A stretch of DNA of 64,000 bases, taken from Pseudomonadales bacterium. Its GTDB lineage: Bacteria; Pseudomonadota; Gammaproteobacteria; Pseudomonadales; GM7GCV1. The position numbers were made by a program, and so were the translations under genes. This document shows, in pieces, positions 2,182 to 44,611 of the stretch; position 1 is the stretch's first letter, and each line of letters starts with the position of its first letter. Below the pieces are notes generated by a model. That model was given only the letters and a program-made list of their open reading frames with translations. It made no database searches and was not told the origin of the DNA. The stretch spans positions 24,252 through 88,251 of the forward strand of contig OZ244871.1 in NCBI GenBank assembly GCA_965221105.1, written 5' to 3'.

Positions 2182-2925
2182 ATGCCAAAATCAACAAGTC
2201 GGGAACGTAAATATAAGCGCATCCTGTTAAAACTGAGCGGAGAGGAGCTCACTGGTGAAGAGGGATATGGCATTGATCCCCAGGTACTGGACAAGATGGC
2301 ACTGGAAATTGGCCAGCTTGTCGGTATCGGTGTTCAGGTCGGTCTGGTTGTTGGTGGTGGGAACCTCTTCCGAGGACAGACTCTCAGCGCAGCAGGACTC
2401 GACAGAGTCACCGGCGACCACATGGGAATGCTGGCAACAGTTATGAATGCACTCGCGCTTCGCGATGCTCTGGAGCGTTCCAATATAGCCAGTCATGTTA
2501 TGTCGGCAATTCCCATTGGCGGTATTGTTGAACACTACGACCGTCGACTTGCAATGAAATATCTCTCACAGGGCGATGTGGTTATTTTCTCCGCTGGCAC
2601 CGGTAATCCATTTTTTACAACGGATTCTGCGGCCTGCCTGAGAGGTATAGAGATTGAGGCCAGCCTGGTACTGAAAGCCACCAAGGTCGATGGGGTGTAC
2701 GATAAGGATCCAATGAAATATCCGGAGGCCATCCTGTGCAGTCACTTGACGTACGACGATGTGCTCAACAAAAAACTTGAAGTCATGGATCTGACCGCCA
2801 TTTGTCTCTGTCGTGATCACGATATGCCTGTGAGGGTGTTCCGAATGGCCAAAGCTGGCGCATTGCTCAATATTGTAGTCGGTGAGCAGGAGGGAACCCT
2901 GATCGAGGAAAAAAGTCATGATTGA
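2182..2925 (+). CDS. pyrH: UMP kinase
   Basis: [13 protein letters not shown] and [10 protein letters not shown] motifs. Start chosen at ATG 2182 (MPKSTS...) rather than the upstream in-frame ORF start at 2098. Confidence 0.93.
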
Positions 2926-3475
2926 AGATATTCGTTCTGAGACCATCGAGCGTATGGTCAAGTCTCTGGAAGCATTGCAGAACCATTTCAACCGGATTCG
3001 CACAGGACGAGCTCACCCAAGTATTCTGGACAGCATCCTGATCGAATATTACGGAGCCAGTGTGCCTCTGAGTCAGGTCGCAAACATCAATGTTGAAGAT
3101 GCGCGCACTCTGTCATTGACACCTTGGGAAAAGGCGTTGGTTCCAGACATCGAAAAAGCAATCATGAAGTCGGATCTGGGCCTGAATCCCGCAACAGCAG
3201 GTGCGGTTATCCGAATACCCATGCCGCCCCTCACTGAAGAGACCCGACGTGGCTACACCAAACAGGCCCGGGCCGAGGCAGAGAACGCACGAGTGTCCAT
3301 TCGCAACGCCCGGCGCGACGCGATGTCACTGCTCAAGGGACTTGAAAAGGACAAGGAAATCTCAGAGGATGAAGAACGTTGTGCGCAGGATGAAATTCAA
3401 AAAGTTACCGATGAATACATCGCCAAGGTCGAAGCGGCTCTTGAGGTCAAGGAAAAGGATCTGCTGGAAATCTAG
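2918..3475 (+). CDS. frr: ribosome recycling factor
   Basis: 185 aa. [22 protein letters not shown] is typical RRF. Overlaps the pyrH stop by 8 nt. Confidence 0.95.
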
Positions 3476-3483
3476 GTTGTTCT

Positions 3484-4245
3484 GTGGCTGATACAGATTC
3501 AAACCCGAGCGAGATCCCCCAACACGTCGCCATCATCATGGATGGCAACAATCGCTGGGCTAGGGCTCGCAACCTGAAAGGAATTGCCGGCCATCAGGCC
3601 GGAGCTGATCGTCTTGAAGATGTCATGCGGGGCTGCTTGGAGCGCGACATCAGGGTTTTGACAGTCTTTGCATTCAGCAGTGAAAACTGGGCGCGCTCAA
3701 AGCAGGAAGTCAAGGCAGTCATGTCGTTGTTCGCCTCGACGCTGAAGCGCTACAGCACCGTACTGAAACAGGAGGATGTTGCGCTCAGGGTCATTGGTCG
3801 CAGGGACAGGTTTAGTCCGCACCTGCAGAAACTGATTGATGAGGTGGAACAGGAAACTGCCTGCGGCAAATACACTCTGGTTGTTGCAGCGGACTATGGT
3901 GGGCGCTGGGATATCGCTCAGGCGTGTCAGGCAATCGCTGCGATGGCTTATGCAAGGGAACTCCGGGTTGACGCGGTGGACGAGGAGCTGTTATCCAGTT
4001 ATTGCGCTCTCGCAGATTTACCACCGGTAGATCTGTTGATTCGAACCGGGGCAGAATACCGCATAAGCAACTTCCTTCTCTGGCAAATCAGCTATTCGGA
4101 GCTTTATTTTGCAAACTGTTACTGGCCGGATTTTGACGGGGCCTGGTTGCGCAAGGCACTGAAGGACTACGCACGCAGACAGCGCCGTTTTGGAACCGAC
4201 TTGACTGTGCCGGGCAGTCAATACGACAGCACTTCGGAGTGCTAA
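3484..4245 (+). CDS. uppS: undecaprenyl diphosphate synthase (cis-prenyltransferase)
   Basis: HVAIIMDGNNRWA and FAFSSENW motifs. GTG start. Confidence 0.93.
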   Translation: MADTDSNPSEIPQHVAIIMDGNNRWARARNLKGIAGHQAGADRLEDVMRGCLERDIRVLTVFAFSSENWARSKQEVKAVMSLFASTLKRYSTVLKQEDVALRVIGRRDRFSPHLQKLIDEVEQETACGKYTLVVAADYGGRWDIAQACQAIAAMAYARELRVDAVDEELLSSYCALADLPPVDLLIRTGAEYRISNFLLWQISYSELYFANCYWPDFDGAWLRKALKDYARRQRRFGTDLTVPGSQYDSTSEC

Positions 4246-5066
4246 CCGTGTTGGGGCAGCGTGCAGTGACAGCCGCGCTGTTGATCGCAGTGTTGCTGGC
4301 AACGCTTTTTGTACCGTGGCGACTGTTTCCGGTGCTAATCCTGTGTCTGTTGGGGCTTTCCGCTTGGGAATGGAGTTCTCTGGCGCGCTTCGGGAACCAG
4401 CGTGAGCGGGCATTCTATGTTGGAGGCACCGTACTCCTTTTTCTGGGCGTTCTGTGGTTTCAGGCCGAAATAATCGAGTTTGCATTTCAGATTTCTATAC
4501 TGGTGTTCTTGATTTGGATCCTGTTCATTCCTCTGTTGGTGAGATTTCCAAAGACCAGGCCGATTTTTCAGAATCCTGTCATTGTCGCAGCGATGGGCGT
4601 CGTTATTCTGCTTTCGACCTCGTCGGGCCTGCTCTGGCTGGAGGCCCACGATCCGGGTCCCTGGCGTGTTCTCTGTCTGTTAGCGATTGTTTCACTGGCC
4701 GATTCCGGTGCCTATTTCGTCGGAAGACGGTGGGGGAAACACAAATTGGCGCCCGAAATCAGCCCCGACAAGACATGGGAGGGCGTCTACGGCGGTCTGC
4801 TGGCAAATTTCCTGTTTGCGCTTCTGTTGGTGTTTGGCTTGAATATGAGGCCAGAACAGGGTTTCCTGGTAGTGCTCGCAGTTCTTCTGACCAGCATTCT
4901 ATCAATTGAAGGCGATTTGCTGGAGAGTGCCATCAAACGCAGTCATGGAGTCAAGGATAGTGGAACCATCCTGCCGGGGCATGGCGGTATGCTGGACCGG
5001 ATTGACGGTGTCAGCGCCGCGACTCCCTGTTTTATTTTCTGTATCCTCTACTTTCCATTGGAGTAG
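4239..5066 (+). CDS. cdsA: phosphatidate cytidylyltransferase
   Basis: Multi-pass membrane protein with the C-terminal signature SAIKRSHGVKDSGTILPGHGGMLDRID. Conserved position after uppS. Confidence 0.9.
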   Translation: MLTVLGQRAVTAALLIAVLLATLFVPWRLFPVLILCLLGLSAWEWSSLARFGNQRERAFYVGGTVLLFLGVLWFQAEIIEFAFQISILVFLIWILFIPLLVRFPKTRPIFQNPVIVAAMGVVILLSTSSGLLWLEAHDPGPWRVLCLLAIVSLADSGAYFVGRRWGKHKLAPEISPDKTWEGVYGGLLANFLFALLLVFGLNMRPEQGFLVVLAVLLTSILSIEGDLLESAIKRSHGVKDSGTILPGHGGMLDRIDGVSAATPCFIFCILYFPLE

Positions 5067-5089
5067 TCAGTTGACTGGGAGACAGTCTA

Positions 5090-6253
5090 TTGAATAATGT
5101 TCTCATTTTCGGGTCTACCGGCTCTGTGGGTATCAGTACCCTGGAGGTTATCGCGAACAATCCTTCCAGATTTAGAGTCTGGGGTATCGCAGCAAACAGC
5201 AACGATGCCGTTGTTATCGAGCAGATTGAGCGGTATTCACCTCAGTATGTGGTGATGCGCGATACTGGAGCTGCTGAAAGGGTCTCCGCATACGTCAGGC
5301 ACAAGCAAATCGGAGTTGAGGTACTGGCAGGGGATGACTCTCTGGTGCGCCTCGCGTCGGCTGAGCCTGTGGACATCGTTATGGCTGCGATTGTCGGTGC
5401 TGCCGGGCTGAAGTCAACACTGGCGGCAGTAAGCGCGGGCAAGCGTGTATTGCTGGCAAATAAGGAATCACTGGTTTGTGCCGGCAAGCTCTTTATGAGT
5501 GCAGTGGAATGCGGTGGTGCCACCCTGATGCCCGTGGACAGTGAGCATAACGCTATATTCCAGTGCCTGCCTCAGGGTGCCATGGACGCAACGGCCGTCA
5601 CAAAAATAATTCTCACTGGATCAGGTGGGCCATTTCGCAACTGGTCAGCGGAGCGGTTAAAGACGGTAACCCCTGCGCAGGCGTGCCAGCATCCAAACTG
5701 GGATATGGGGCAAAAGATTTCTGTGGATTCTGCAACCATGATGAATAAGGGGCTGGAGTATATAGAGGCCTGCTGGCTGTTTGGTGTGAGCCCGAATCAG
5801 ATAGAAATCCTGCTCCACCCACAGAGCCTCATTCATTCCATGGTCTACTATCGGGACGGTTCTATCCTGGCGCATATGGGTGTTCCTGATATGAAGACGC
5901 CTATTGCCCATGCGCTAAGCTGGCCTGAACGCATTGATTCTGGAGTTGCTGAGGCAGATTTTTCTGCCTGGGACCTGCAATTTGAGCATCCCGATTTGCA
6001 GGCCTACCCTTGTTTGGAAATTGCACTTGACGTCGCCCGGGAAATGGGAGCGGCACCAACAGTCATGAATGCTGCCAATGAAGTGGCGGTGCAGTCTTTC
6101 CTGGACAGGAAAATAGGCTTCACCGCGATCGCTGGACTCATATCCGGCAGTCTGAATCGGCTGAGCCCGGGGGAACCCGCATCAATTGAAGAAGTCCTAG
6201 AGATCGACGCTGAAGCGCGCGCTGTCGCACAACAGCTGGCAGACGGCTGTTAG
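5090..6253 (+). CDS. dxr: 1-deoxy-D-xylulose 5-phosphate reductoisomerase
   Basis: IFGSTGSVGISTLEV (NADPH site), LANKESLV, PVDSEHNAIFQC. TTG start. Confidence 0.95.
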   Translation: MNNVLIFGSTGSVGISTLEVIANNPSRFRVWGIAANSNDAVVIEQIERYSPQYVVMRDTGAAERVSAYVRHKQIGVEVLAGDDSLVRLASAEPVDIVMAAIVGAAGLKSTLAAVSAGKRVLLANKESLVCAGKLFMSAVECGGATLMPVDSEHNAIFQCLPQGAMDATAVTKIILTGSGGPFRNWSAERLKTVTPAQACQHPNWDMGQKISVDSATMMNKGLEYIEACWLFGVSPNQIEILLHPQSLIHSMVYYRDGSILAHMGVPDMKTPIAHALSWPERIDSGVAEADFSAWDLQFEHPDLQAYPCLEIALDVAREMGAAPTVMNAANEVAVQSFLDRKIGFTAIAGLISGSLNRLSPGEPASIEEVLEIDAEARAVAQQLADGC

Positions 6254-6306
6254 ATGCGTCATCAATGTAAGCACACAGAATACAAGGGGTAGATCTCGCA
6301 CATTCG

Positions 6307-7686
6307 ATGGAAATTCTGGAGATCATTTTTTATGCGCTTGTGGCGCTGTTTGTGCTGGTGACTGTGCACGAGTACGGGCACTATTGGGTGGCACGACGCT
6401 GCAACGTGCAAGTTGAGCGGTTTTCTATCGGGTTTGGCAAACCTCTGCTCATCTGGAATCGAGGTGGGACAGAGTTTGTGTTGGCCGCCATCCCGCTGGG
6501 AGGATACGTCAAAATGTACGGTGAAGCCGCCCACCAAGAGGATGTAACTGAGGAAACCCGGTATCTGAGCTTCAGACACAAGACAGTGTGGCAGCGTATT
6601 GCAATCGTATCCGCGGGCCCCCTGGCAAATCTGATTCTGGCCGTGACAGCCTATTTCCTGGTGTTTTGGGGTGGACTCCCTGGTGTAGCACCCATCGTTG
6701 AGCATGTGACAGCGGGATCGATTGCCGAACAGTCCGGATTGCCATCACATTCTGAAATACTCGCCGTTGATGGGGTACCGGTATACACCTGGTCCGATGT
6801 GATAGATGGGTTGATCAAGCGCGTAGGGGAATCCGGCGAGCTGGAACTGGAGGCTGCGAGTTACATTCTCCCATCCGGTCCATCAGGGTACGAGGTGCCT
6901 GCCCAGCTGTACGAGTTGCAGATCGAGAAGTGGCTTGGGGACAGCGATGACCCCGATCTTCTCGGCTCTCTTGGCCTGGTCCCCTATAATCCAAAAATTG
7001 AGCCCTTGGTCGGACAGGTGCTCGATAACAGTCCGGCCGCAGCGGCCGGTCTGAGCCCCGGAGACAGAATTGTTGAGACCGATGAACTGCCCATCACGGA
7101 ATGGGAGCAGTGGCGTGCCATCGTCCGCGAGTCTCCCGGTAAGGATCTCAACGTTCTGGTGTCGAGGGACGGACAGATATATCAGCTCAGATTGCGCCCC
7201 GACATCGTGGATGAAGAGGGCGGGCAAGTTGGTCTGGCGGGTGTGGCGCCCCGGCCCCCTGAATGGCCTGAGGAACTGCTCAGGGAACGAGAATACGGTT
7301 TTGTCTCTGCCTGGGCTGCAGCGCTGAACAAAACTGCGTCCAACAGCCTGTTTGTACTGGATTCTCTCGGGAAACTGGTGAGCGGACAGGTATCCACCAA
7401 ATCGCTGGGAGGCCCAGTGTCCATTGCCAAGTTTGCCGGTGCCTCCGCGGATGCCGGATGGCAGTCATTTTTATCGTTTCTGGCAATTATGAGCGTCATG
7501 CTGGGTGTCATGAATCTTCTTCCAATACCGATCCTCGACGGTGGTCATCTCATGTTTTACGCTATCGAGGTGCTCAAGGGATCACCCCTGAGCGACGCTG
7601 TTCAGGGCGCAGCAATGCGACTGGGCATGTCGATAGTGTTAGGGATTATGGTATTAGCTCTGTACAATGATTTTATGCGCTTGTAA
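6307..7686 (+). CDS. rseP: RIP zinc metalloprotease RseP
   Basis: HEYGHYW (HExxH) in the first TM segment, PDZ-like middle region, and C-terminal NLLPIPILDGGH motif. Confidence 0.93.
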   Translation: MEILEIIFYALVALFVLVTVHEYGHYWVARRCNVQVERFSIGFGKPLLIWNRGGTEFVLAAIPLGGYVKMYGEAAHQEDVTEETRYLSFRHKTVWQRIAIVSAGPLANLILAVTAYFLVFWGGLPGVAPIVEHVTAGSIAEQSGLPSHSEILAVDGVPVYTWSDVIDGLIKRVGESGELELEAASYILPSGPSGYEVPAQLYELQIEKWLGDSDDPDLLGSLGLVPYNPKIEPLVGQVLDNSPAAAAGLSPGDRIVETDELPITEWEQWRAIVRESPGKDLNVLVSRDGQIYQLRLRPDIVDEEGGQVGLAGVAPRPPEWPEELLREREYGFVSAWAAALNKTASNSLFVLDSLGKLVSGQVSTKSLGGPVSIAKFAGASADAGWQSFLSFLAIMSVMLGVMNLLPIPILDGGHLMFYAIEVLKGSPLSDAVQGAAMRLGMSIVLGIMVLALYNDFMRL

Positions 7687-7741
7687 GGTCGCCACCTCTC
7701 AACTCCACATCTGCAGTTTCCCGATTTCCAATTCACCATAT

Positions 7742-10102
7742 ATGAGAGCCATCAGATACATTCTGTTTGCAGCCCTGTTATCCCCCGGGTCTGCATGTGC
7801 CAAGGCATTCACTGTTGAAGACCTTCGCATCGAGGGCCTGCAGCGCGTCTCTGCCGGCTCGGTTTTCTCTGCCGTACCCGTTCAGGTGGGAGATCTTGCG
7901 GATCAATCAATGATCCAGGACAGCATACGTGCGCTGTTTCGAACCGGGTTCTTTAGCGACATTCTGGTATATCGGGATGAAAATGTCCTGGTCATTCAGG
8001 TCTCGGAAAGACCTGCCATTTCCGAGATCAATATAGAAGGCAACAAGGTTATCAAGGACGATGATCTGTTCAGATCCCTGCGTGAAAACGGACTATCAGA
8101 GGGTCAGATATTCAGGCCCGCTACCCTTGATGGTTTGAGCAAGGCACTGAGTCGCGAGTACGTATCCCAGGGACATTACAGTGCGACGCTGGAGACCGAA
8201 CTGCGTGAACTGCCTCGCAATCGCGTGGCAATTGATATCGATATCGATGAAGGGAGTAAAGCCAGGATCAAGGAAATCAATTTTGTCGGAAACAGGGAGT
8301 ATTCCGACAAGCAACTTCTGGATATTTTTAGCCTGCAAACCTCAGGCTGGTTTACTTGGATAACGGGCAAGGACAAGTACTCGCGCGAGAAACTTTCGGG
8401 TGACCTGGAAGCCCTTGAGGCACACTATCTGGACTTGGGTTATCTGCGTTTTAATATAGCCTCCACACAGGTCTCCGTCAGCCCGGACAAGGAGGCCGTG
8501 TATATCACCGTCAATCTGAAGGAAGGTGATGTCTACAACGTCAGCCTGGTTGGATTGTTGGGCGATCTGATCGTGTCTGAGGAAGAGTTGCTCGAGTACA
8601 TACTTCTTAGTGAGGGGGAAAATTTTTCTCAGAGCCAGCTTACACGTACCAAGGAGATCATGACCAACCGGCTCGGAAATGAAGGGTATACCTTCGCTGA
8701 GGTGGAAGAGATACTGGATATTGACGATGAGGCCAACACGGTTGGACTCACCTTTTTTGTTGATCCCAAGCAACGTGCCTATGTGAGACGGATCGAATTC
8801 AGAGGAAATACCCGAACCGAGGGTGAGGTTCTGCGTCGCGAGATGCGCCAGTTCGAATCTGCGGCGGCCTCCAATCAGCTTATTGAATATGGCAAAGTCC
8901 GCCTTGATCGGCTTGGCTTTTTCAAGGAAGTTGAATCCGAGACCGTTCCGGTGCCCGGAACCAGCGACCAGATTGATGTTATCTACTCTGTTGAAGAACA
9001 GAATTCCGGCAGTATCAGCGCCAGCATCGGTTTTGCGCAAAATCGGGGGGCCATCCTCGGACTGAATCTGCAGGAGAACAACTTTCTGGGAACGGGCAAT
9101 CGTGTCGGCATCGGTGTGAACAGGAGTACATATCAGCAGGCTCTCAATCTCAGCTATACTGACCCCTACTTTACTGAAGATGGAGTTAGTGCAGGCTATT
9201 CGATCTATCTCCGGGAGGTCGATTATGGCGACCTTGATATCGCGACCTATACCACCGATATTCTCGGGTTAAGTGTGAACTATAGCTATCCCCTGTCAGA
9301 GATTTCAAGGATATCTGCCGGCTTTGGGTACGAAAATCTAAAGATCGATCTGGGGAGTCGCGCCTCGGGCGAGATCGAAGAGTTTGTTTCTGAAGACACC
9401 GGTTTTGATCAATGGAAGATAAATGCTGGCTGGTTGCGCAGCACATTGAACCGGGGCATATTTGCTGACCGGGGCAGTCGTCAGTCAATCGTGATAGAAG
9501 CCGCGATTCCCGGTAGCGATGCTCCCTATCTGAAAATAGGCTATGAGGGCCAGAAATATGTCCACCTCTTTGGACCCTGGACCATGCGCTTCAGGACCGA
9601 ACTGGGCTACGGCTTAAGCCTGGACAGTGGTCGTCGGCTGCCTTTTTTCGAGAACTATTACGCTGGTGGCTTTGGTTCGGTTCGTGGTTTTGAAAGCAAC
9701 ACCCTTGGCCCCAGGGAGTCTCCTGCTTTTCAGGAGGAAGCAGATGGCAGCATCACTTATCTCGACGATGCTGACCCTATCGGAGGTAATGTTCTGATTA
9801 CCGGTTCTGCCGAGATCTTGATTCCGCTGCCGTTTGTGCCCGACCAGAGATCTGTTCAGGCGGTAGCCTTTTTTGACGCCGGGAATGTCTTCGATACGGA
9901 TTGCGGTCCGCGTCAGGTGTTCTGTTATAAGCCTGACCTCAATGAGCTCAGGTATTCCTACGGTTTTGGGTTTACCTGGCTGAGCGGTTTTGGCCCCATG
10001 TCGTTCGCAATTGGTCGTGGCGAAAATGGTGCCACGGGATCATCAAACGTCGAGCCCGAGGAGACCGAATTCTTCCAGTTTTCTCTCGGCCAGACCTTTT
10101 AA
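7742..10102 (+). CDS. bamA: outer membrane protein assembly factor BamA
   Basis: Signal peptide MRAIRYILFAALLSPGSACA, POTRA repeats, and a C-terminal beta-barrel ending FQFSLGQTF. ATG 7742 chosen inside ORF 7667..10102. Confidence 0.93.
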   Translation: MRAIRYILFAALLSPGSACAKAFTVEDLRIEGLQRVSAGSVFSAVPVQVGDLADQSMIQDSIRALFRTGFFSDILVYRDENVLVIQVSERPAISEINIEGNKVIKDDDLFRSLRENGLSEGQIFRPATLDGLSKALSREYVSQGHYSATLETELRELPRNRVAIDIDIDEGSKARIKEINFVGNREYSDKQLLDIFSLQTSGWFTWITGKDKYSREKLSGDLEALEAHYLDLGYLRFNIASTQVSVSPDKEAVYITVNLKEGDVYNVSLVGLLGDLIVSEEELLEYILLSEGENFSQSQLTRTKEIMTNRLGNEGYTFAEVEEILDIDDEANTVGLTFFVDPKQRAYVRRIEFRGNTRTEGEVLRREMRQFESAAASNQLIEYGKVRLDRLGFFKEVESETVPVPGTSDQIDVIYSVEEQNSGSISASIGFAQNRGAILGLNLQENNFLGTGNRVGIGVNRSTYQQALNLSYTDPYFTEDGVSAGYSIYLREVDYGDLDIATYTTDILGLSVNYSYPLSEISRISAGFGYENLKIDLGSRASGEIEEFVSEDTGFDQWKINAGWLRSTLNRGIFADRGSRQSIVIEAAIPGSDAPYLKIGYEGQKYVHLFGPWTMRFRTELGYGLSLDSGRRLPFFENYYAGGFGSVRGFESNTLGPRESPAFQEEADGSITYLDDADPIGGNVLITGSAEILIPLPFVPDQRSVQAVAFFDAGNVFDTDCGPRQVFCYKPDLNELRYSYGFGFTWLSGFGPMSFAIGRGENGATGSSNVEPEETEFFQFSLGQTF

Positions 10103-24566: not shown

Positions 24567-25853
24567 TTAGCGTTGGTCGACAGGCTTGAATTCCCGTTTT
24601 TCGTAGCCAGTGTACAGCTGGCGAGGCCGGCCAATGCGGCTGTTGTCCTCGACCATTTCATTCCAGTGAGCCAGCCAGCCGGCGGTGCGACCCAAAGCGA
24701 AGATGACAGTAAACATGTTCAGCGGAATACCTATGGCGCGGAGGATAATGCCCGAATAGAAATCCACGTTTGGGTAGAGTTTTTTCTCAATAAAGTAGTC
24801 GTCTTCGAGTGCAATTTCTTCCAGACGTTTGGCAATTTCGAGCAAAGGGTCGGTCACACTCAGTGCCGTAAGCACCTCGTCGCATGTCTGTTTCATAACC
24901 TTGGCACGTGGATCAAAATTCTTGTACACACGGTGACCGAAACCCATAAGACGGAAGGAATCACTGCTGTCCTTGGCTCTTTTGACTGCAGTATCGACAT
25001 TGGAAATGTCGCCGATTTCTTCGAGCATGTTGATTACAGCTTCATTTGCGCCTCCATGCAAAGGTCCCCAGAGTGCCGCTACACCTGCAGCAATACATGC
25101 GAAGGGGTTGGCACCGGTTGATCCTGCCAGCCTCACGGTCGAGGTTGAAGCATTCTGTTCATGATCGGCATGCAAAACGAAAATGCGGTCCATTGCACGG
25201 GCAATGACCGGGTGCACTGCATAGTCTTCACAGGGAGTTCCATACATCATATAGAGAAAATTGGCAGCGTAATCCAGATCGTTACATGGGTACATTGATG
25301 GCTGGCCTATGCTGTGTTTGTAGGCCATTGCCGCCAAGGTAGGCATCTTGGAGATCAATCTCAGCGTGGTAATCCAGCGATGCTCTGGGTTGTTAATATC
25401 CAGCGAGTCGTGGTAGAAGGACGAGAGTGCGCCCACAACTCCACAGAGCATGGCCATGGGATGGGCGTCGTATCGAAAGCCCTTGTAAAAGTCTCGAATC
25501 CATTCGTTGACCATCGTATGCCGATTAATTGTTTCTAGGAATGCCTGTTTTTGCTCGGCATTTGGTAACTCACCATTCAGCAGAAGATAGGAAACTTCCA
25601 GGTAATCGGACTGCTGCGATAATTGCTCGATTGGGTATCCCCGATGCAGCAGGATGCCTTGGTCACCGTCAATATAGGTTATCTTGGATTCGCAGGATGA
25701 TGTGGATGTAAAGCCTGGGTCGAGCGTGAAATAGCCCTTGGAGGCGAGGGATGTGACATCGATTACGTCTGGTCCGATCGTACCGGAGCGGACGCCCAGC
25801 TCAATGGTATCATCAGAACCGTCGATGGTTAGCCGTGCCTTGCGGTCGGTCAT
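24567..25853 (-). CDS. gltA: citrate synthase (type II)
   Basis: 428 aa. LTIDGSD...[15 protein letters not shown] and [14 protein letters not shown] signature. Confidence 0.95.
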
Positions 25854-26389
25854 ACAGTTTCTCCAAAATCAGAATGCACTATCTATTACGGATGTTGTGC
25901 AGCATCGGGTGGAACTCCATACAGGGACATCTTGTCCTATCTTGCCGGGGAGCGTGGTCGGTGGCCGATCAAAATGCAAGTATAGCTCAGAGTGCGCTCC
26001 CCAATTATACGCTGAATCAGTTCACGCGGAAATTCTTAGCCTTCGGCTGGTTGCATACCTGGTGCGAGGCTTCGATCTTCTGTTTGGGCTCAAGGCTCAA
26101 GGCTGGTTGAAAGATCAACCATGCCAGCCCGGAAAGCCTTGTGCGTAGACCGATTGAGTTGAGTTTGGCTGTCTGGATATGTAAACTATCGGCCCGGTTT
26201 TGCGATGGACAATTTCCTTAGAAATCCGTCCTTCAATTGTATTGTCCCGTTTGATCATTGGCTCTTGTTCGGGTGTTTACCGGATTGATCGCCGACTGAA
26301 TTTGGCTGGCGAAGAATGTGCATCGCGTTGAGAAACCATCGGGATGGTAAAGAGTCTGAACTCGGGCGCAGGCTAATCTGGAGTATCTG

Positions 26390-27274
26390 GTGCGACGAGA
26401 GAGCGCACTCAGCCTTTAAATTCAATACCTTAGGTAAGGATTTAAAGGCACTCAGAAGGGTTGTCAACAGGTCTTCCGGGATCTCTCCCCCAGCCGTCAG
26501 GGGTACAACGGCGCCCTGTAGGGGGGTCAGTCTCAACTGAACATCCGAAAGGATCGAAGGAGCCTACAGTAGTAAAACCTGACACGATAGACCTCAGAAG
26601 CCCACCTGAGCCATCACATGACATCGTAGGTCATGTCACTGAAACAAACAGGGAGCCCTGTGCTGCTCATACGAGTAGCTGCCCCAGGATTAAGGGCTAT
26701 ATAAACCGTTCCGTCGGCCCGACGTGAAAAGGCCATTCGGGCTGCTCAGTGAGAAGGGTAGAGGATGATGGATGAATCGAATGACAGAGTGTACTGATGT
26801 GACTACCGGGATGAGCCAGGCTTGGCAGCGAACGCTGTGCCCACGTCCATCGGGTCTTTCATCGCACGATGACAGGTGCACCCTCAATAGAAAACCCGCA
26901 CGGGGTCTCCTCCTCAGGGGGTGTCGCTATCCTGATAAGGAGGCGGAATGGTGTACCGCCGTCTCCCCAGGCAAGCTCTGGTCTCCCTCTGTCTCGTATG
27001 GAGAGAAGGGAATAGCATGAAAAAGCAGACTGTGTGTGCGGTGAGAGGCACCACCTATGCCCGCGGTCTCAGAACCACCAGCGGACTGACACCAGATCGA
27101 TCAGGGCCATGTTCACAGAATGGTTTGAGGGGTGCTTGTGCGGAGTGCGAAGGCTGCATGGAGTGCACAACCGGATCTTTCGGGGGCTGTGTAAGGCTTG
27201 AGCCGTATGCGGGGAAACTCGCACGTACGGTTCTGAGGGGACGGGAGCACAGTAATGTGCTCCTGCTATCCGAC
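26390..27274 (+). mobile_element. ORF-less (IEP-deleted) group II intron
   Basis: 5' GTGCG at 26390. Canonical 34-nt domain V at 27200-27233. Domain VI hairpin GGAGCACA-GTAA-TGTGCTCC has a bulged A at 27268, 6 nt before a ...GAC 3' end at 27274. Total length fits an intron without a reverse-transcriptase ORF. The 5' boundary is less certain than the 3' end. Confidence 0.8.
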
Positions 27275-27277
27275 TAG
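27017..27277 (+). pseudogene. residual domain-IV ORF (remnant of the intron-encoded protein start, 86 codons, no RT motifs)
   Basis: GGAGAGAAGGG SD-like tract plus ATG 27017. The reading frame runs through domains V and VI to TAG 27275-27277. No reverse transcriptase, maturase or HNH motifs are recognisable. Confidence 0.4.
27200..27233 (+). ncRNA. group II intron domain V (catalytic hairpin)
   Basis: GAGCCGTATGCGGGGAAACTCGCACGTACGGTTC contains the AGC triad, a 9-bp lower stem, a 2-nt AC bulge, a 5-bp upper stem and a GAAA tetraloop. Confidence 0.9.
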
Positions 27278-27279
27278 GT

Positions 27280-29043
27280 ATGAAAACCATGAATTTTGAC
27301 GGGGTCATCGTCGGGGGTGGCGGTGCGGGGATGCGCGCAGCTTTGCAGCTTGCCCGGTCGGGCTTTAAGACCGCAGTTATTACCAAGGTTTTCCCAACCC
27401 GTTCGCATACCGTTTCCGCCCAAGGCGGCATAACGTGTGCCATAGCTTCAGCAGATCCAAATGACGACTGGCGTTGGCACATGTATGACACCGTCAAGGG
27501 TTCGGATTACATCGGCGATCAGGATGCCATTGAATATATGTGTTCCGAGGGCCCGGAGGCTATCCTTGAACTCGATCACATGGGCTTGCCCTTCTCGAGG
27601 TTTGACAATGGCCGCATATACCAGCGGCCCTTTGGCGGCCAATCCAAGAACTTTGGTGAGGGCGGACAGGCAGCACGCACCTGTGCTGCAGAAGATCGTA
27701 CGGGCCACGCGCTGCTGCATACGCTCTATCAGAGCAACATCAGGAACGAGACCACATTCTTTAATGAGTGGTTTGCCGTTGACCTGGTTAAGAATGTCAA
27801 GGACCAGATTGTCGGCGTTATTGCTATCGATATTGAATCTGGCGAGCAGCTTTTCGTTCAGTCCAAAGCGACCGTGCTGGCTACCGGCGGCGCAGGCCGT
27901 ATCTATGCGTCAACCACAAATGCTCATATCAACACCGGTGACGGTGTCGGTATGGCTCTTCGTGCTGGTATGCCGGTTCAGGATATGGAGATGTGGCAGT
28001 TTCATCCCACCGGTATCTATGGAGCGGGAGTACTGGTCACCGAAGGATGTCGGGGTGAAGGCGGCTACCTGATCAACAGGGACGGTGAGCGATTCATGGA
28101 GCGCTATGCACCCAACGCCAAAGATCTTGCATCTCGTGACGTTGTTGCGCGCTCCATGTTTACCGAGATTCGTGAGGGGCGAGGCTGTGGCGAGGGTGCT
28201 GACCATGTCATGCTCAAGCTTGACCACCTTGGTGAGGACGTTCTCAACTCAAGGCTGCCCGGAATTCAGGAACTCGCGAGGACTTTTGCCCAGGTGGATC
28301 CCACCATTGAAGCCATTCCTGTCGTTCCGACCTGTCACTATATGATGGGTGGTATTCCTACGAATATTCACGGTCAGGCAATAACCCAAGATGAATGCGG
28401 CCAGGACAAGGTCATTGACGGGCTCTATGCTTGCGGTGAAATTGCCTGTGTTTCAGTGCATGGAGCGAACAGGCTGGGAGGGAATTCATTGCTGGACCTA
28501 GTGGTATTTGGGCGCGCAGTGGGCCTCTATCTCGAAAAAGCCCTGAGCGACGGTATCCAGATGGATGAGGCAGTTCAGAGTGATATTGAAGCTGCTATGG
28601 CGCGACTCGACAGAATTGAGAACAATCCCGGCGGCGAGCCAGCCCACCGAATCCGCGCCGATATGCAAAGGATCATGCAGGAGTGCTTTGGTATTTTCCG
28701 CACGGGTGAAGATATGGAGCGTGGCAGACAGGAGCTGTTGGCGCTGCGTGAACGAGCTGACAATGTCGGTTTGAGCGACACAAGCAAAGTATTTAACACG
28801 GCTCGTATCGAGTCGCTGGAATTGCAGAATCTGTTTGAAACTGCCGAGGCCACCGCCCAGGTTGCATCAGTACGTGAGGAATCCCGCGGGGCGCACTCGC
28901 GCGAGGACTATCCCGACAGGGATGACGAGAGCTGGCTGACCCATTCAATGTATTGGAAACAGGGCAAAAGAATCGGACGGCGAGCTGTCAATATGACCCC
29001 AAAAACTATTGCAACCTTTGAGCCCATGACCCGTACGTACTGA
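27280..29043 (+). CDS. sdhA: succinate dehydrogenase flavoprotein subunit
   Basis: [31 protein letters not shown] (covalent FAD His), HPTG, CHYMMGG. Near-collinear with the E. coli SdhA sequence as I recall it. Confidence 0.95.
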
Positions 29044-29060
29044 GTGATCTGCCAGGAGGA

Positions 29061-31273
<2,213 letters not shown>

Positions 31274-31366
31274 TGCGTAATCTGGAAGCTCATTTTTTCA
31301 ACAGGTTGATCAGATCAGTTTACATAGTCTGCTGCACTAACATCCCGGTATTAAAGAGAAGACCAT

Positions 31367-32527
31367 ATGAATCTACATGAATATCAAGCCAAGCAGATAT
31401 TTGCCCAATACAGCCTTCCGGTGTCACAGGGTATCGTAGCTTCGACCGCCCAGGAAGCCGTTGCCGCGGCAGATGAAATCGGTGAGGACCGACTGGTTGT
31501 CAAGGCTCAGGTTCATGCCGGAGGTCGAGGCAAAGCCGGAGGTGTCAAGCTGGTATCCAGCAAGGAAGAAGTGGATGAATTCGCCCGCAAATGGTTTGGC
31601 AGTCGTCTGGTGACGTACCAGACCGATGCCAGGGGTCAGCCGGTCAGCCGCATTTTGGTTGAGCCATGCACGGACATTGCCGATGAGCTGTATCTCGGTG
31701 GTGTAGTGGATCGTGGCACACGCCGTATCGTCATCATGGCGTCTACTGAGGGCGGCGTAGAGATTGAAAAGGTTGCCCGTGAAATGCCCGAGAAGATTCT
31801 TCGTGCGGCGATTGATCCCCTTGTTGGCCCACAGCCCTATCAAGCGCGTGAAATGGCTTTCAAGCTGGGTCTTGCAGCTGCGCAGATCAAACAATTCACT
31901 AAAATCTTTATGGGGTTGGTGAAAATCTTTATGGAAAAGGATGTTGCACTGTGCGAGGTAAACCCTCTCGTTGTCAAGGCTGACGGTGATCTGCATTGCC
32001 TCGATGCCAAGCTCGTAATCGATAGCAACGCATTGTATCGCCAAAAGGATCTGCAGGAGATGGCTGATCCCAGTCAGGATGACGAGCGCGAGGCGCATGC
32101 GGCTCTGTGGGATCTCAATTACGTAGCACTGGACGGGAACATAGGCTGCATGGTCAATGGCGCCGGATTGGCTATGGGAACCATGGACATTGTGAATCTG
32201 TACGGCGGGACACCGGCAAACTTCCTTGATGTAGGCGGGGGGGCAAATAAGGAAAGGGTTGCTGAAGCTTTTAAAATAATTCTTTCCGACCCCAATGTGA
32301 AAGCGGTGCTGGTCAACATCTTTGGTGGCATTGTTCGGTGCGACATGATTGCACTGGGGATTATCGGTGCAGTTGAAGAGGTTGGTGTGAACGTTCCAGT
32401 CATCGTTCGACTTGAAGGCACCAACTCAGAAGAGGGCAAGCGGGTTCTTGCCAAAAGTGATCTGAATATTCAGGCAGCTGCTTCGCTGGACGAAGCCGCC
32501 GAGCGAGCTGTCAAAGCCGCACAGTAA
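31367..32527 (+). CDS. sucC: succinyl-CoA synthetase beta subunit
   Basis: [12 protein letters not shown] start and ATP-grasp domain. 386 aa. Confidence 0.95.
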
Positions 32528-32548
32528 TTTACCGGAGACCGAGGATAT

Positions 32549-33421
32549 ATGAGTGTATTAATTGACAAGAATACCAGGGTAATCTGTCAGGGGTTTACTG
32601 GTTCCCAGGGCACCTTTCATTCGGAACAGGCAATTGCCTATGGAACACGAATGGTCGGTGGTGTTACGCCTGGAAAGGGCGGGCAAACCCACCTCGATCT
32701 GCCCGTTTTCAACACCGTATCTGATGCCGTTGAAGCCACTGGGGCGACCGCATCCGTGATCTATGTGCCAGCGGCTTTTTGCAAGGATTCCATTCTGGAA
32801 GCGGTTAATTCCGGTATTGAGTTGGTAGTCTGCATTACCGAGGGAATCCCCACTATGGACATGCTTGAGATTAAGGTGAAATGTGATGATCTGGGCGTAA
32901 ATTTGATCGGCCCCAACTGTCCCGGCGTGATTACGCCCGGTGAATGTAAAGTTGGTATCATGCCTGGGCACATTCATCTGCCCGGCAAAGTGGGCATTGT
33001 GTCCCGCTCCGGTACGCTGACATACGAAGCCGTCAAGCAGACGACTGATAGCGGTTTCGGGCAATCAACCTGTGTGGGTATTGGTGGAGACCCTATTCCT
33101 GGCTCCAATTTCATCGACATTCTGGAGATGTTCAGAGATGACGATCAAACTGAAGCGATTGTCATGATTGGCGAAATTGGTGGTACTGCCGAGGAAGAGG
33201 CCGCCGAATATATCGGTGCCAATATCGACAAGCCCGTTGTAGCGTACATCGCCGGTGTCACCGCACCCCCAGGAAAGCGCATGGGGCATGCTGGGGCGAT
33301 AATATCTGGTGGCAGGGGAACCGCCGAAGAAAAGTTCACCGCACTGGAAGCTGCCAGAGTAAAAACCGTGCGCAGTCTTGCAGAAATTGGCAACGGCCTC
33401 AGGGAAATCACCGGCTGGTAA
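32549..33421 (+). CDS. sucD: succinyl-CoA synthetase alpha subunit
   Basis: [23 protein letters not shown] and phosphohistidine loop MGHAGAII. Confidence 0.95.
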
Positions 33422-37681: not shown

Positions 37682-38882
37682 AGTGTAGTGTCTTATAAAT
37701 AGATTCAATTAATCGTCATTTTATGTCACGCTGGCCATTGTGTACCTCATGCACCTGAGAGAGATGTGAGCACTATGGCCCGACCTATTTCGGTTTTGGA
37801 GCTGACAGCGGATGATAAAGCAGAACTTAAGCGCCGTGTTGCTGCTTCAACAACCCCGGCGCGTGATGTGGTGCGGGCACGTATCGTTCTGTTGCGCAGC
37901 ACGGGGATGCGGCAGCAGGATGTGGCACAGGCGGTTGGTGTTTCGAACGGTCAGTCAACAAGTGGTCGCACCGCTTCGATGTGTTGGGTCTGCAGGGGCT
38001 GAAGGACAAGCCAGGGCGAGGCGTCAAACCGTCCATTTCGCAGGCGGCGGTGAAGGAGGTCATCGACAAGGCGGGTACGGATGCGTCGGCCATGCAGGTG
38101 CGCAGTACGCGCACCACAGCAGCCGAGATGGGAATCTCGGCGTCGAGCGTCTCCCGCCTCTGGCGTCGGCATGATCTCAAGCCACATCGCATGCGCACTC
38201 TGAAACTGTCGAACGATCCTCAGTTTCAAGAAAAGTTCTGGGACATCGTGGGGCTGTATCTGGACCCACCGGACAAGTCTCTGGTGTTGTGTTGCGACGA
38301 GACGACACAGATTCAGGCACTGGAGCGCACTCAGCCGGAGCTCCCACTTGGCATCGGCCATATCCGCACCCACACGCACGACTCCATTCGGCATGGGACA
38401 TTGACGCTGTGTGCGGCGATGAACTATCTCGATGGCACACTGATCAATCGTCTTGAAGCCACCCATACCCATGTTGAGTGGCTGCGCTTTCTCAAGCAGA
38501 TCGACTGGGAGACGCCGAAGGATCTGACGCTCCACCTCATTGCCGATAACTACGCCACACAGAAGCACGCACAGGTTCAGGCCTGGCTCAATACACACCC
38601 GCGATTCGTGATGCACTTCACTCCGACATCAGGCTCGTGGCTGAACCTGGTGGAGCGTTTCTTCGCCAAGATGACCACCGTGCTAGGCGCCAGCAGCTTC
38701 TCCAGCCTGGACGAGTTGCGGCACGAGATCATCAGGCATCTGGCCGAGTACAATGAACATCCAAAACCGTTCAAATGGACAGCACGGGGTGAAGATATAC
38801 TGGAGAAGATTGGCCGGGCCAAGGCGAAGCTGGAAAAAGTGGAAAAGGACGTTAAATGAACCTATTCATGAGACACTACACT
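37682..38882 (+). mobile_element. IS630-family insertion sequence
   Basis: Imperfect terminal inverted repeats of about 32 bp. The left is AGTGTAGTGTCTTATAAATAGATTCAATTAAT. The reverse complement of the right is AGTGTAGTGTCTCATGAATAGGTTCATTTAAC. The first 12 nt are identical. The repeats enclose the transposase frames. Confidence 0.85.
37775..38859 (+). pseudogene. IS630-family DDE transposase in two frames (shift near 37946-37951)
   Basis: Frame A reads MARPISVLELTADDKAELKRRV...AQAVGVS. The -1 frame continues SVNKWSHRFDVLGLQGLKDKPGRG..., with CCDETTQIQALE, LIADNYATQKH and WLNLVERFF (DD..E). No slippery heptamer is present at the junction. Confidence 0.8.
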
Positions 38883-41210: not shown

Positions 41211-41286
41211 TGGTGGAGCCAGGCGGGATCGAACCGCCGACCTCAACACTGCCAGTGTTGCGCTCTCCCAGCTGAGCTATGGCCCC
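41211..41286 (-). tRNA. tRNA-Ala (anticodon GGC)
   Basis: The reverse complement reads GGGGCCATAGCTCAGCTGGGAGAGCGCAACACTGGCAGTGTTGAGGTCGGCGGTTCGATCCCGCCTGGCTCCACCA. It has the G3:U70 identity pair, a CTGGCAG anticodon loop, a GGTTCGATCC T-arm and an encoded CCA. Confidence 0.93.
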
Positions 41287-41522
41287 GGATTGGTCCGACA
41301 GTATTGCAGATCCAAAAAGGAGCGCGCATTCTATGTAGGTGCTTTGGGGGTGTCAACATCATCATTAAGCATTGTGCATTACCGGCTGTACAATGCCGTC
41401 GCTGCGAAGGCGTTACAAAGCCGACAAGATTTACCTATCATCTGAACTTCGAGAGCTCATCCGAGCTAACTCATTGATATTCTTTATAAAATCAAAATTG
41501 TATCAGATCGCTACTGGGTACA

Positions 41523-43076
41523 CTACCGTATTCGCACGCCCAAGAGCCGGAACGCTTCCGCCTGCAGCTCAGTGGGCCGGGTCAGGGTTTCGAAGGGTTC
41601 AGCCCCGGGTATCCGGGGCACAACCCGATTCTTCGTGAGGGTGGCGAGGTCCTTCATCAGGGTACGAAAGCTCTGCACAGGCATCCCGTCATCGGTGCAC
41701 GTGCGTGCAGCCTTCCGCCTGGCAGATGCCGAGACCCGGGCCGGGGCCACCACCGAGGTGCGCTCAGCGTCCGCGCCGGCGGAGTCCTCATCATCGAACA
41801 GCAGAGAAGCCAGCCGCTGACGCATGTGCCATTCCACGGAATAGGCCAGCATACACAGCAGCACATGAGCCCGCACCCGGTTCTCCGTGCGGTGGACCAC
41901 CGGACGTACCTTCAGATCCAGGGGTGTGAGACTGCGGAAGGCCCGCTCCACCCCGCTCAGGCGCGTGTAGGCGCGCACCGTGGCCCGGGCATCCAGCTCC
42001 TCCTCGGGCAGGTTGGTGCGGATGATGGAGAGGCCGTCCAGTGCAGCCTCCGCGGCGATGGACTCGGCGCGTCTCTCGGAGTGGACGACGCCGTGCTCGT
42101 CGATCGACCACTCACAATGCTTGGCCATCCTGTACCGGCCAATGACCGTCCCGACCCGCGCCCCGATCCTGTCCTCACCCCTCAGGCGTCGCTTCTCCCG
42201 CGTGGTGGCTGCCACACTGGGCTCAAGCACCTGCTCAGTCGCCTCCAGCAGTGCCTCACGCTTGCGGGCTCTGCGCTGTGCCATCAGCGGGGTGCGGCAC
42301 ACCATGAGCCGCTCCCCCGGATAGAGATCACTGCGGATCTCCACCAGGTCCTGCTCATCACAGAGCGAGCGCTGCACTGCACCGGTCTCGACCAGGGTGC
42401 GGATCGCCGGGCCCCGCAGGGCACTGATCCAGTCCAGCCCCGCCGGGTGGGCCTCCTCCCGGATGCGCGCTTCGACGAGCTTGGCCCGGTCGCCCACCAG
42501 GACGACCTTCGACAGCCCGAAGCGCTCACGCAGCTTCTCGATCTGCGGCCCCACCGTGGCCGGATCAGCCGTGTTGCCCGGACAGACCTCGACCGACACC
42601 GGACAGCCGGTGGCATCACAGAGCAGGCCGAACTCAATCTGCAGCGTCCCGCGCTTCCCATCCCGAGAATACCCGCGCCTGGCCAGGGGGCAGGTGGTGC
42701 CTTCCATATACACCGAGGTCAGGTCATAGAGCACCAGGGCACCGTCGGTCAGGTGGCGCTTCGCCAGAGACCGCTCGATGCGATCCTGGCGTTCGAGCAG
42801 CCAGTCCATGGCACTGTACAGGTCATCTTCATCCACTGTGCCCAGCACGGCGGCGACATGCCCGTGGGGCAGGGAGCGGAGGATGTCGAAGGCCTCGCCG
42901 AGCCGTTCCACGGCGGTGCCGCCCTTGAGCAGCAGGCGCAGGCCCTCAACCAGGGCGTGGGGCCACTTGGAGAGATTGGCCAGGGTGCGTTTCTTGACCC
43001 GTCCGTTGTGTCGGTAGGACTCGCGCAGCAGCACGGCGGGCGGGGATGAGCGGTTGGGGACGGATTCGATGTACAT
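41523..43076 (-). CDS. IS1634-type (IS4-related) transposase, apparently intact
   Basis: MYIESVPNRSSPPAVLLRESYRHNGRVKKRTLANLSKWP N-terminus recalled as typical of this family. Single uninterrupted frame. The block from about 41500 to 43140 is visibly GC-richer. IS ends were not resolved. Confidence 0.7.
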   Translation of the reverse strand: MYIESVPNRSSPPAVLLRESYRHNGRVKKRTLANLSKWPHALVEGLRLLLKGGTAVERLGEAFDILRSLPHGHVAAVLGTVDEDDLYSAMDWLLERQDRIERSLAKRHLTDGALVLYDLTSVYMEGTTCPLARRGYSRDGKRGTLQIEFGLLCDATGCPVSVEVCPGNTADPATVGPQIEKLRERFGLSKVVLVGDRAKLVEARIREEAHPAGLDWISALRGPAIRTLVETGAVQRSLCDEQDLVEIRSDLYPGERLMVCRTPLMAQRRARKREALLEATEQVLEPSVAATTREKRRLRGEDRIGARVGTVIGRYRMAKHCEWSIDEHGVVHSERRAESIAAEAALDGLSIIRTNLPEEELDARATVRAYTRLSGVERAFRSLTPLDLKVRPVVHRTENRVRAHVLLCMLAYSVEWHMRQRLASLLFDDEDSAGADAERTSVVAPARVSASARRKAARTCTDDGMPVQSFRTLMKDLATLTKNRVVPRIPGAEPFETLTRPTELQAEAFRLLGVRIR

Positions 43077-43405
43077 GGCTACAGTATCGCGATCCATACA
43101 GCGCACACAGCCCGCCACATCAATCACTTGGCTCAGATATCAGTGAAAAATCAAGGGGAAGTTCAGTATAATGCGCGGCTTTTGAGACAGCGGGGGTATT
43201 AAGGCAGAACAACAAACCGTATTTGATGATTGATCGCATCCAGAGGTTTCTAAAATAGCCATGCGCACAGGGTGAATCCCGCACTGTACTGCTTTTACTG
43301 AATGCGCCATTGACAGGATATGCGGATTACATTGCAATTTTTGTTCACCTGCTTTTGCCTGACACCACATCCGTTTCTGAAAACTCATCAACTGGAGATA
43401 TACCT

Positions 43406-44386
43406 GTGAAAGCACCTGTCCGTGTAACAGTTACCGGCGCGGCCGGACAAATCAGTTATTCGCTGCTCATCCGTATTGCGTCCGGGCAGATGCTTGGCCA
43501 TGATCAGCCTGTTATATTGCAGATGCTTGAAATCAAGCCTGCTCTTGATGCGCTCAAGGGTGTTGCCATGGAACTGGAAGATTGTGCTTTCCCCTTGCTT
43601 TCGAGAATGGTACAGACCGATGATGTTAATCTGGCCTTCGCGGATGCTGACTATGCGTTTCTGGTGGGAGCGAGGCCAAGAGGGCCTGGAATGGAGCGCA
43701 CAGATCTTCTGGAAACCAATGCGGCAATTTTTTCTGTGCAGGGCAAGGCCATCAACGATCATGCGAGCAGAAACATCAAGGTTCTGGTTGTCGGCAATCC
43801 AGCTAATACCAATGCATTGATAGCGCAACGCAATGCTCCAGATTTGAATCCACGCAACTTCACCGCAATGATGCGCTTGGATCACAATCGTTCGTTGAAT
43901 CAGCTTGCCAACAAAACCGGAAATCACAGCACCGACGTCAGGAATGTTGTTGTATGGGGTAATCACTCAGCAACCCAGTATCCAGATCTGCATCATGCCT
44001 GCGTTGCTGGTACGCCCGCTATGGATCTGATCGACATGGATTGGTACGAGAATGAATTTATTCATACTGTGCAGCAGCGAGGGGCAGCGGTAATCAAGGC
44101 TCGCGGCCTTTCCTCGGCCGCATCCGCCGCAAACGCAGCAGTAGACCATATGCGCGACTGGGTACTGGGCTCTGCTGAGGACGACTGGGTGAGCATGGGC
44201 GTGTATTCCGACGGCAGCTACGGTATTGAAGAGGGCCTCATCTACTCGTATCCCTGCATATGTCGAAACGGTAACTGGGAAATTGCACAGGGTCTTGGAG
44301 TGAACGAGTTCTCCCGCACGAAAATGCAGGAGACCGAGCAGGAACTCAGGCAAGAGCGTGATGCCGTAGCGCATCTGCTACCCTAA
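43406..44386 (+). CDS. mdh: malate dehydrogenase
   Basis: [31 protein letters not shown] (GTG 43406 after GGAGA), [27 protein letters not shown]. Confidence 0.92.
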
Positions 44387-44611
44387 TGGTATCCGTATGT
44401 GGCTATTCCTGAGCTGGGATCCCCACCACAGGATTTTGATCTGCCTGAATTAGAAGTGAAAACTCAGACGTCGCGACCTCGTGACCTGATTTCAGGTACA
44501 TTCGGGGTCACTTTCTTCAATGATAACAACAAGTTTCGAGCATTTCGAGCGTGACAGATTGGTTCATGTCGTGTTCATAGAATATGGAACATATGTGATT
44601 GACAGCGCCTC

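Follow-up and report, generated by a model that had tools for sequence, protein, structure and literature searches.

Most copies of group II introns that bacteria carry are truncated or have been inactivated, and bacterial introns that have no protein gene and yet are spliced, in trans, are known but rare (PMC4424553). Long-lived intergenic intron remnants near functional genes have likewise been documented (PMC4181065). Here, an element of 885 nt lies on the plus strand (26390-27274) and ends 5 nt short of the sdhA ATG in a 64-kb window, the window being the whole stretch of DNA that was analysed. A preliminary description had presented this element as an ORF-less group II intron with an intact-looking catalytic core, which might gate the expression of sdhAB-lpdA-sucCD through its splicing. 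Our analysis supports a group II intron devoid of its protein gene, but points to a very different present state: the element is very probably a doubly deleted, neutrally decaying intron relic, dead rather than a splicing switch.

Descent from a group II intron is evident in the 5' GUGYG terminus, the homology of internal domains, the precise insertion and the canonical domains V and VI. The GTGCG terminus reported at 26390 can be read directly from the sequence, and the 34-nt domain V described at 27200-27233 is present and unique in the window, where none would be expected by chance. The Rfam model RF00029, which comprises domains V and VI, matches 27198-27274 with 64.8 bits (E 1.8e-10 over 64 kb; gathering score 40). 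Its alignment agrees with the proposed domain VI hairpin and bulged A at 27268 and also with the 3' end ...CCGAC at 27274, which in addition corresponds to the boundary of the E. coli homologue, and the intron boundaries of 26390 and 27274 are upheld. When the whole intron was compared with plasmids and E. coli genomes by DNA similarity search, domains V and VI alone matched, and blastn of intron nt 1-791 against plasmids gave no match. The domain V/VI match is to a widespread proteobacterial intron, exemplified by the chromosomal ltrA intron of E. coli M3 (L001 683-3085), to which the two domains are 88% identical with compensatory exchanges in both: the domain V pair G12-C21 is exchanged for C-G, and domain VI presents two double compensatory changes.

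Closer relatives were obtained from a metagenome pattern scan (L129 and L130), from a genome locus (L047) and from the contig that encodes the nearest full-length protein (L132). A scan of genome contigs with the 5' motif GTGCGACGNGANAGN{0,1}CGCAC returned at least 119 introns, mostly unrelated, with L030 and L047 the useful ones among the matches listed. The L132 contig carries two complete introns in tandem (2133-5292 and 5293-8462) downstream of an ETF-QO gene, each of which starts with GTGCGAC, matches RF02012 (domain I) and RF00029, and encodes a protein containing RVT_N, RVT_1, GIIM and HNH domains. Set against these relatives, the locus reads as follows.

26375-26389, plus strand: 5' exon flank, containing the ancestral sdhA Shine-Dalgarno sequence GGAG (26380-26383) and ending at the insertion point.
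26390-26489, plus strand: intron 5' end, GUGCGACGAGAGAGCGCAC followed by two hairpins.
26490-26704, plus strand: unalignable segment of about 215 nt, matching no relative.
26705-26759, plus strand: degenerate domain II remnant, securely aligned from about 26730 only (distal hairpin and 3' strand).
26766-26852, plus strand: domain III, mostly preserved and about 80% identical to L129 and L130.
26853-27198, plus strand: domain IV stub, with the closing helix, an SD-like sequence and ATG, and a remnant of the intron protein gene.
27200-27233, plus strand: domain V, canonical and identical to domain V of both L132 introns.
27236-27271, plus strand (3' end at 27274): domain VI, with bulged branch-site A 27268, from the RF00029 alignment.
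27275-29043, plus strand: 3' exon, TAGGT followed by sdhA (ATG 27280; Pfam FAD_binding_2 and Succ_DH_flav_C).

The nhmmer matches to L047, L129, L130 and L132 cover domain III, domain IV and the start of the protein gene (E 1e-18 to 4e-28). In comparison with the full-length L132 introns the window copy retains the following blocks, numbered in intron nucleotides, the first of which was recovered by local alignment.

nt 1-100: intron 5' end, colinear although the similarity is weak (z about 5.7).
nt ~341-497: distal domain II, domain III and the base of domain IV.
nt ~576-770: protein gene, its start and N-terminal codons.
nt 779-885: pre-domain V, domain V and domain VI.

The element is flanked by gltA (24567-25853, minus strand) on one side and by sdhA, sdhB, lpdA, sucC and sucD (plus strand) on the other. 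Three-frame translations between gltA and the intron revealed no remnants of sdhC or sdhD, and relatives likewise have neither gene between gltA and sdhA. By its SdhA relatives the organism belongs among Porticoccaceae-like gammaproteobacteria. Two relatives, L126 and L131 (SdhA ~88-90% identical to that of the window), are intron-less and provide the empty site. Their gltA-sdhA spacer of 616-620 nt ends ...ATCTGGAGAATCCAAGAATATGAAAACA, their empty sites read ...ATCTGGAGAATCCAAGAATATG, and AATCTGGAG is common to both and to the 5' exon flank of the window; compared with these sites, the joined exons of the window read ...ATCTGGAGTATCTG joined to TAGGTATG or, in a longer reading, ...ATCTGGAGTATCTG joined to TAGGTATGAAAACC. 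The exon-1 GGAG at 26380-26383 and the sdhA ATG at 27280 named in the preliminary description are both present, and the spacing of 11 nt that it had calculated for the joined exons proves identical to that of the intron-less relatives. Because the GGAG-to-ATG distance of the empty sites matches in this way, the intron can be placed exactly between the sdhA Shine-Dalgarno sequence and start codon, and the empty sites show that splicing would restore the ancestral spacing. At the identical site the element is also found in the sister strain L125 (2.81-Mb contig; 97.7% identity across 10.5 kb). Since the element is common to the window and L125 at one site, in two independent assemblies that differ by 22 substitutions within it, an assembly artefact is ruled out.

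Helices of the internal domains were scored on the consensus structure of five relatives. Domain III retains 22 of its 26 pairs in the window, with helices of 8/8, 5/5 and 4/4 pairs and a 2-bp helix at 1/2, while the hairpin capped by UGUAAUG has fallen to 4/7 pairs compared with 7/7, with covariation, in the relatives. At the base of domain IV a hairpin that is mostly formed in the relatives keeps all of its pairs (9/9), and the domain IV closing helix (26853-26862 with 27189-27198), read by analogy with the E. coli GGUCUUUCAA/UUGAAAGGCU, keeps nine out of ten. Domain II is far more degraded, with 7/12, 2/5, 2/4 and 0/2 consensus pairs (11/23 in total) against nearly all in the relatives. Within domain IV, the SD-like GGAGAGAAGGG and ATG at 27017 pointed out previously are present and align with the point at which the intron protein gene of relatives begins. 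From 27017 to about 27155 there remain ~45 degenerate N-terminal codons, frameshifted relative to the ATG at 27017 and containing in-frame TGA at 27087-27089 (for TGG) and 27126-27128 (for CGR); this remnant aligns with L047 6518-6895 and with L130 and L132, over the ORF start and the codons for WHQIDW...VRGMQVRIAKA. The deleted part of the intron protein gene amounts to about 1.56 kb. Pfam and tblastn with E. coli LtrA confirm that the element contains no RT, maturase or HNH gene, and Pfam assigned no domain to the 109-aa ORF running through domains IV-VI. The 86-aa ORF, which spans the deletion junction, is spurious; its translation found a single full-length match in the protein database, the L125 copy, and brought up no additional copy with the same deletions.

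Domain I of a group II intron is responsible for exon recognition and forms the scaffold against which domain V docks. The segment 26390-26489 corresponds by homology to the initial ~100 nt of the full-length relatives, where a large 5' inserted domain begins (local alignment score of 41 with L129 nt 1-99; shuffled sequences 22.6 +/- 3.2), and the intron 5' motif is also present in E. coli L001, L047 and L132. From 26490 to 26704 no significant local alignment to the relatives was obtained. Together with the uncertainly aligned 26705-26729 this segment amounts to ~240 nt, containing many small hairpins, and it stands where the relatives have ~735 nt comprising the remainder of the 5' inserted domain, the domain I core in its entirety (IB, IC and ID with the EBS loops) and 5' domain II. 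A conserved domain I core is found in all of the full-length relatives (L001, L047, L129, L130 and both L132 copies; 103-116 bits), the RF02012 model (group-II-D1D4-7), which covers subdomains IB and IC, giving 116.5 bits in E. coli, 102.6 in L047, and 111.2 and 108.7 in L132. In the window, however, neither RF02012 nor any other domain I-IV Rfam family matched at E<=10 in 26000-27600, and a search of 26300-27300 with a HMM built from five domain I cores gave no match at E<=1000. For subdomain ID, a covariance model (R1; 195 positions and 49 pairs) applied without filters returned spurious matches of <=10 bits only, with the whole interior of the model deleted. Similarly, with E. coli domains I-III the alignment to L047 extends over nt 75-596 (E 5e-35), but that to the window over nt 455-604 only. 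MFE folding of the whole element yielded nothing informative on domain I. For domain I the searches thus gave the outcome that the preliminary description had itself named as a refutation, with neither covariance-model nor profile support.

In L129 and L130 the EBS1 loop reads UUACAU, complementary to their exon AUGUAA, and falls in the part that is missing from the window. Complements to the 5' exon of the window (UAUCUG / CUGGAG) can be read at nt 42-47 (UAGGUA) and nt 80-84 (CAGGU), but such matches of 5-6 nt are at chance level, about one being expected, and none lies within a homologous EBS loop; they were given no weight for or against pairing. The nhmmer and local alignments to L129, L130 and L132 begin at intron nt ~341-347. 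We considered whether nt 17-25 (CACUCAGCC) pair with 351-362 (GGCUG-CUC-AGUG) to close the 5' inserted domain, as happens in the relatives; such a helix would put the deletion exactly between itself and J2/3. The breakpoints cannot be fixed, however, because that 3' segment also matches the 3' strand of E. coli domain II at 20/24 positions. With the domain I core absent, domain II largely unpaired and one hairpin of domain III degraded, the description of an intact-looking catalytic core does not hold. The loss of domain I leaves neither EBS1/EBS2 loops nor a docking scaffold, so that cis-splicing is not expected, and the relic RNA would neither recognise its exons nor dock domain V and hence would not splice.

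Comparison with L125 indicates how the element is evolving. The two copies of the intron differ at 22 of 885 positions (2.5%), the fourfold-degenerate sites of six flanking genes at 21 of 1224 (1.7%), and the upstream spacer by 7 substitutions and 2 indels in 536 nt. Judged by these 22 substitutions and this one sister strain, the element changes at a rate equal to or above neutral. The adjoining sdhA, with five synonymous and no non-synonymous differences, is under purifying selection. Domains V-VI show three differences in 75 nt (4.0%), one of which, G27225->C in L125, breaks the domain V U-G pair adjoining the catalytic AC bulge; the other two, in domain VI (27243 and 27248), both keep the pairing, although two sites carry little weight. 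Immediately beyond the intron, both strains preserve the AGG at 27276-27278 (TAGGT vs CAGGT).

Helper functions encoded elsewhere were sought in the available sequence. No RT homologue was detected in the 64-kb window by tblastn with E. coli LtrA, no other intron pieces were present in the 64-kb window or in 13.8 kb of L125, and among the best 120 relatives of the family's protein none came from the 2.81-Mb L125 contig. These results bear on the proposal that the element is a splicing-competent intron, acting alone or with a maturase encoded elsewhere, which brings the GGAG to 11 nt from the ATG at a ligated junction expected to read ...GUAUCUG joined to UAGGUAUG, and which in this way gates sdhAB-lpdA-sucCD. 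The canonical 5' GUGCG, domain V and domain VI with its bulged A all speak for this proposal, as does an insertion between Shine-Dalgarno sequence and ATG so precise that removal would restore the ancestral leader, and trans-spliced bacterial introns without a protein gene do exist, though rarely (PMC4424553). We nevertheless regard it as very unlikely, given a domain I core missing by three independent searches, a domain II with fewer than half of its consensus pairs, the lack of EBS1/EBS2 loops where the EBS1 loop of the relatives lies within the deleted part, and a substitution rate that is at least neutral, with a domain V pair broken in L125. Gated expression is unlikely because domain I is unsupported, the rate is neutral and neither sibling copies nor a maturase were found, either as a gene in the window or among the best 120 relatives from the L125 contig.

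In a variant, a second intron copy or fragment elsewhere in the genome would provide domain I in trans, in the manner of fragmented organellar introns. Split group II introns do trans-splice in organelles (PMC4424553), and the genome holds other mobile elements, namely the transposase genes at 37981-38859 and 41523-43127. A foreign domain I would, however, need exon-binding sites that match this particular exon, while no related intron sequence occurs in the window or L125, no sibling protein gene from the L125 contig appears among the best 120 relatives, and neutral drift argues against a maintained RNA function; a supply of domain I in trans is scarcely conceivable. Taken more broadly, continued removal of the element from the sdhA leader, whether by an unconventional minimal domain I made of the ~240 nt and the 5' inserted domain or by a domain I acting in trans, is highly improbable. 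Were it to occur, SdhA synthesis would hang on a splicing event that rebuilds the spacing between Shine-Dalgarno sequence and ATG, and a bacterial housekeeping TCA-cycle operon would be gated by a radically reduced, very small group II ribozyme. In the window strain domains V and VI remain canonical, both splice-site sequences are intact, and most pairs still form in domain III and in the helix that closes domain IV; these surviving canonical parts are also to be expected of a recently inactivated copy, in which some residual activity is conceivable. The combination serves as a caution that a canonical 5' end and textbook domains V and VI do not amount to a working group II ribozyme.

We therefore return to the dead relic as the preferred reading, for which the insertion, the deletions and the neutral drift are all directly visible in the comparisons above. 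In the history that we propose, a full-length group II intron, from a family with an RF02012 domain I, an RT/maturase/HNH protein and an extra domain near the 5' end, would have retrohomed into the sdhA 5' UTR of a Porticoccaceae-like gammaproteobacterium, between the GGAG ribosome-binding site and the ATG. The insertion would have followed the split from relatives with ~90% identical SdhA and preceded the divergence of the two ~98%-identical strains. Two later internal deletions, one of ~1.56 kb of the protein gene and one of the domain I core and 5' domain II, would have left the 5' ~100 nt, a broken domain II, domain III, the domain IV stub and domains V and VI as a relic carried within a long sdhA leader. 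The relic may persist because its removal without harm to the start of sdhA would call for a very exact deletion.

The maintenance of sdhA implies that the gene must be translated from the unspliced leader, and thus probably without splicing and without its ancestral Shine-Dalgarno sequence. The public gene call (P0001, 584 aa) begins at M4, a further in-frame ATG situated at 27289, and 587-aa SdhA relatives begin MKTM. That ATG 27289 arose as a new, compensating start is ruled out, M4 being present in the intron-less relatives also. The likeliest start of SdhA would be ATG 27289, for which the AGGU 9 nt upstream (27276-27279) would serve, with ATG 27280 as the alternative. The locus would accordingly offer a natural case in which a gene of an essential pathway works although a retroelement has separated it from its Shine-Dalgarno sequence.

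This arrangement also raises the question of whether the dead ribozyme has been co-opted in the sdhA leader as a promoter, as a processing or stability element, or as an initiation context formed by the domain VI hairpin and AGGU. The gene must be expressed, being under purifying selection, yet the ancestral Shine-Dalgarno sequence is 885 nt away, so that some sequence in or beside the relic must serve initiation, and the AGG at 27276-27278 is the same in both strains; remnants beside important genes have, moreover, been proposed as sources of regulatory variation (PMC4181065). On the other hand, sigma-70-like promoter matches in 25700-27400 numbered 0 where 1.2 were expected, the element as a whole shows no constraint, and a Shine-Dalgarno role for the last few nucleotides requires no intron-specific function. 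Such co-option appears unlikely.

Comparison with described introns places this relic among familiar objects. The full-length RF02012 introns of E. coli M3 and L132 share with it the 5' sequence GUGCGACG.GA.AG(.)CGCAC and the 3' end ...CCGAC, a domain V that is identical in L132 and identical at 32/34 positions in the E. coli M3 intron, a homologous domain VI with compensatory changes, and a protein gene that starts at the same position with the same sequence (GATAGCATG). The window copy differs from them in having no IB-IC-ID core, no 5' domain II and no ~1.56 kb of protein gene, and in leftover codons that are frameshifted and interrupted by stops. C.te.I1 from Clostridium tetani and cyanobacterial copies that are spliced by the protein of a sibling (PMC4424553) resemble it in having no intron-encoded protein while retaining the termini, domain V and domain VI. 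These introns, however, keep a complete ribozyme and usually have full-length siblings in the genome, in contrast to the present copy, which has lost domain I and for which the searches brought up no sibling. Another counterpart is the RmInt1-related remnant FRE652 of Sinorhizobium (PMC4181065), which is likewise an inactive piece fixed in an intergenic or leader position beside a functional gene, inherited vertically by related strains and accumulating substitutions. Bacterial fragments of this type typically lose a terminus (the 3' end in the case of RmInt1), whereas the window copy keeps both and has two internal deletions; because both termini survive and the losses are internal, it looks complete at first sight. 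Its place between a Shine-Dalgarno sequence and a start codon is also unusual for such remnants. As a kind of object, then, the relic is ordinary, and what sets it apart is the retention of both termini together with its site between the Shine-Dalgarno sequence and the start codon.

The relic lies in a TCA-cycle gene cluster (24567-33421 of the window) in which gltA is divergent from sdhA-sdhB-lpdA-sucC-sucD. Neither sdhC nor sdhD is found between gltA and sdhA, and neither sucA nor sucB in the 57-nt gap between sdhB and lpdA, in the window or in the intron-less relatives L126 and L131. Because these relatives share the same layout, the arrangement without the four genes is a clade trait and not an effect of the intron. 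At the start of the window (110-210) there is also an Rfam t44 RNA match of 47.7 bits.

In L125, the sister-strain contig that carries the same relic, a malate/lactate dehydrogenase gene and a DDE_Tnp_1 transposase gene lie in inverted orientation directly upstream of gltA (1-3217); their window counterparts are 16 kb off, within 41440-44387. This relocation looks like an IS-associated rearrangement between the strains. The genes concerned, and a further transposase gene, are located in the window as follows:

37981-38859, DDE_3 transposase gene
41523-43127, DDE_Tnp_1 transposase gene
43310-44386, malate/lactate dehydrogenase gene

A tRNA-Ala (GGC) on the minus strand (41211-41286) adjoins the transposase gene. 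Within the relic itself, L125 presents a pair-breaking G to C change in domain V at the equivalent of window position 27225. Just past the relic's 3′ end, T27275 to C abolishes the TAG that ends the spurious 86-aa ORF, which is therefore called as an 88-aa gene in L125.

The full-length relatives of the relic share an extra domain of 370-670 nt, placed directly 3′ of the 5′-terminal GUGCGACG.GA.AGUC and ahead of the first domain I helix, in these stretches:

L132 2133-2790, 5′ extra domain
L132 5293-5670, 5′ extra domain
L129 28-410, 5′ extra domain
L130 1418-2060, reverse strand, 5′ extra domain
L047 5449-6060, 5′ extra domain

Its closing helix covaries from locus to locus, being GCGCUUGCU/AGCAAGCGC in L129, an 8-bp equivalent GCGCUUGC/GCAAGCGC in L130 and GCACUUCUC/GAGAAGUGC in L047. 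A second GTGCGACGTG motif lies within this domain in L047 (5991-6013) and could be a fragment of another intron's 5′ end. The two L132 introns, both full-length and related to each other, are arranged head-to-tail (2101-8500), the second beginning directly after the ...CCCGAC of the first, and the pair is flanked by the ETF-ubiquinone oxidoreductase stop codon and the terminator-like hairpin of that gene (GGGTAATAAAAAACCCGGCGCCAGCCGGGTTTTTTT).

The longer version of the extra domain contains a 67-aa ORF (MPDRDK...; L132 2462-2665, where it is annotated as a gene, and L130 ~1751-1954, reverse strand). A conserved hydrophobic ORF of 37 aa (e.g. MEPAFVISMVSIPIFFLSVLAFVLILRARANKQNTEK) is found in domain IV, 5′ of the RT/maturase gene; neither ORF has a Pfam match. 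The latter is located at:

L132 6404-6517, 37-aa hydrophobic ORF
L129 1139-1252, 37-aa hydrophobic ORF
L130 2780-2893, reverse strand, 37-aa hydrophobic ORF

Unlike these three loci, the window relic lacks the 37-aa ORF. No described group II class is known in which a large inserted domain separates the 5′ splice site from domain I, and the E. coli homologue intron differs from those of L132, L129, L130 and L047 in being without the 5′ extra domain.
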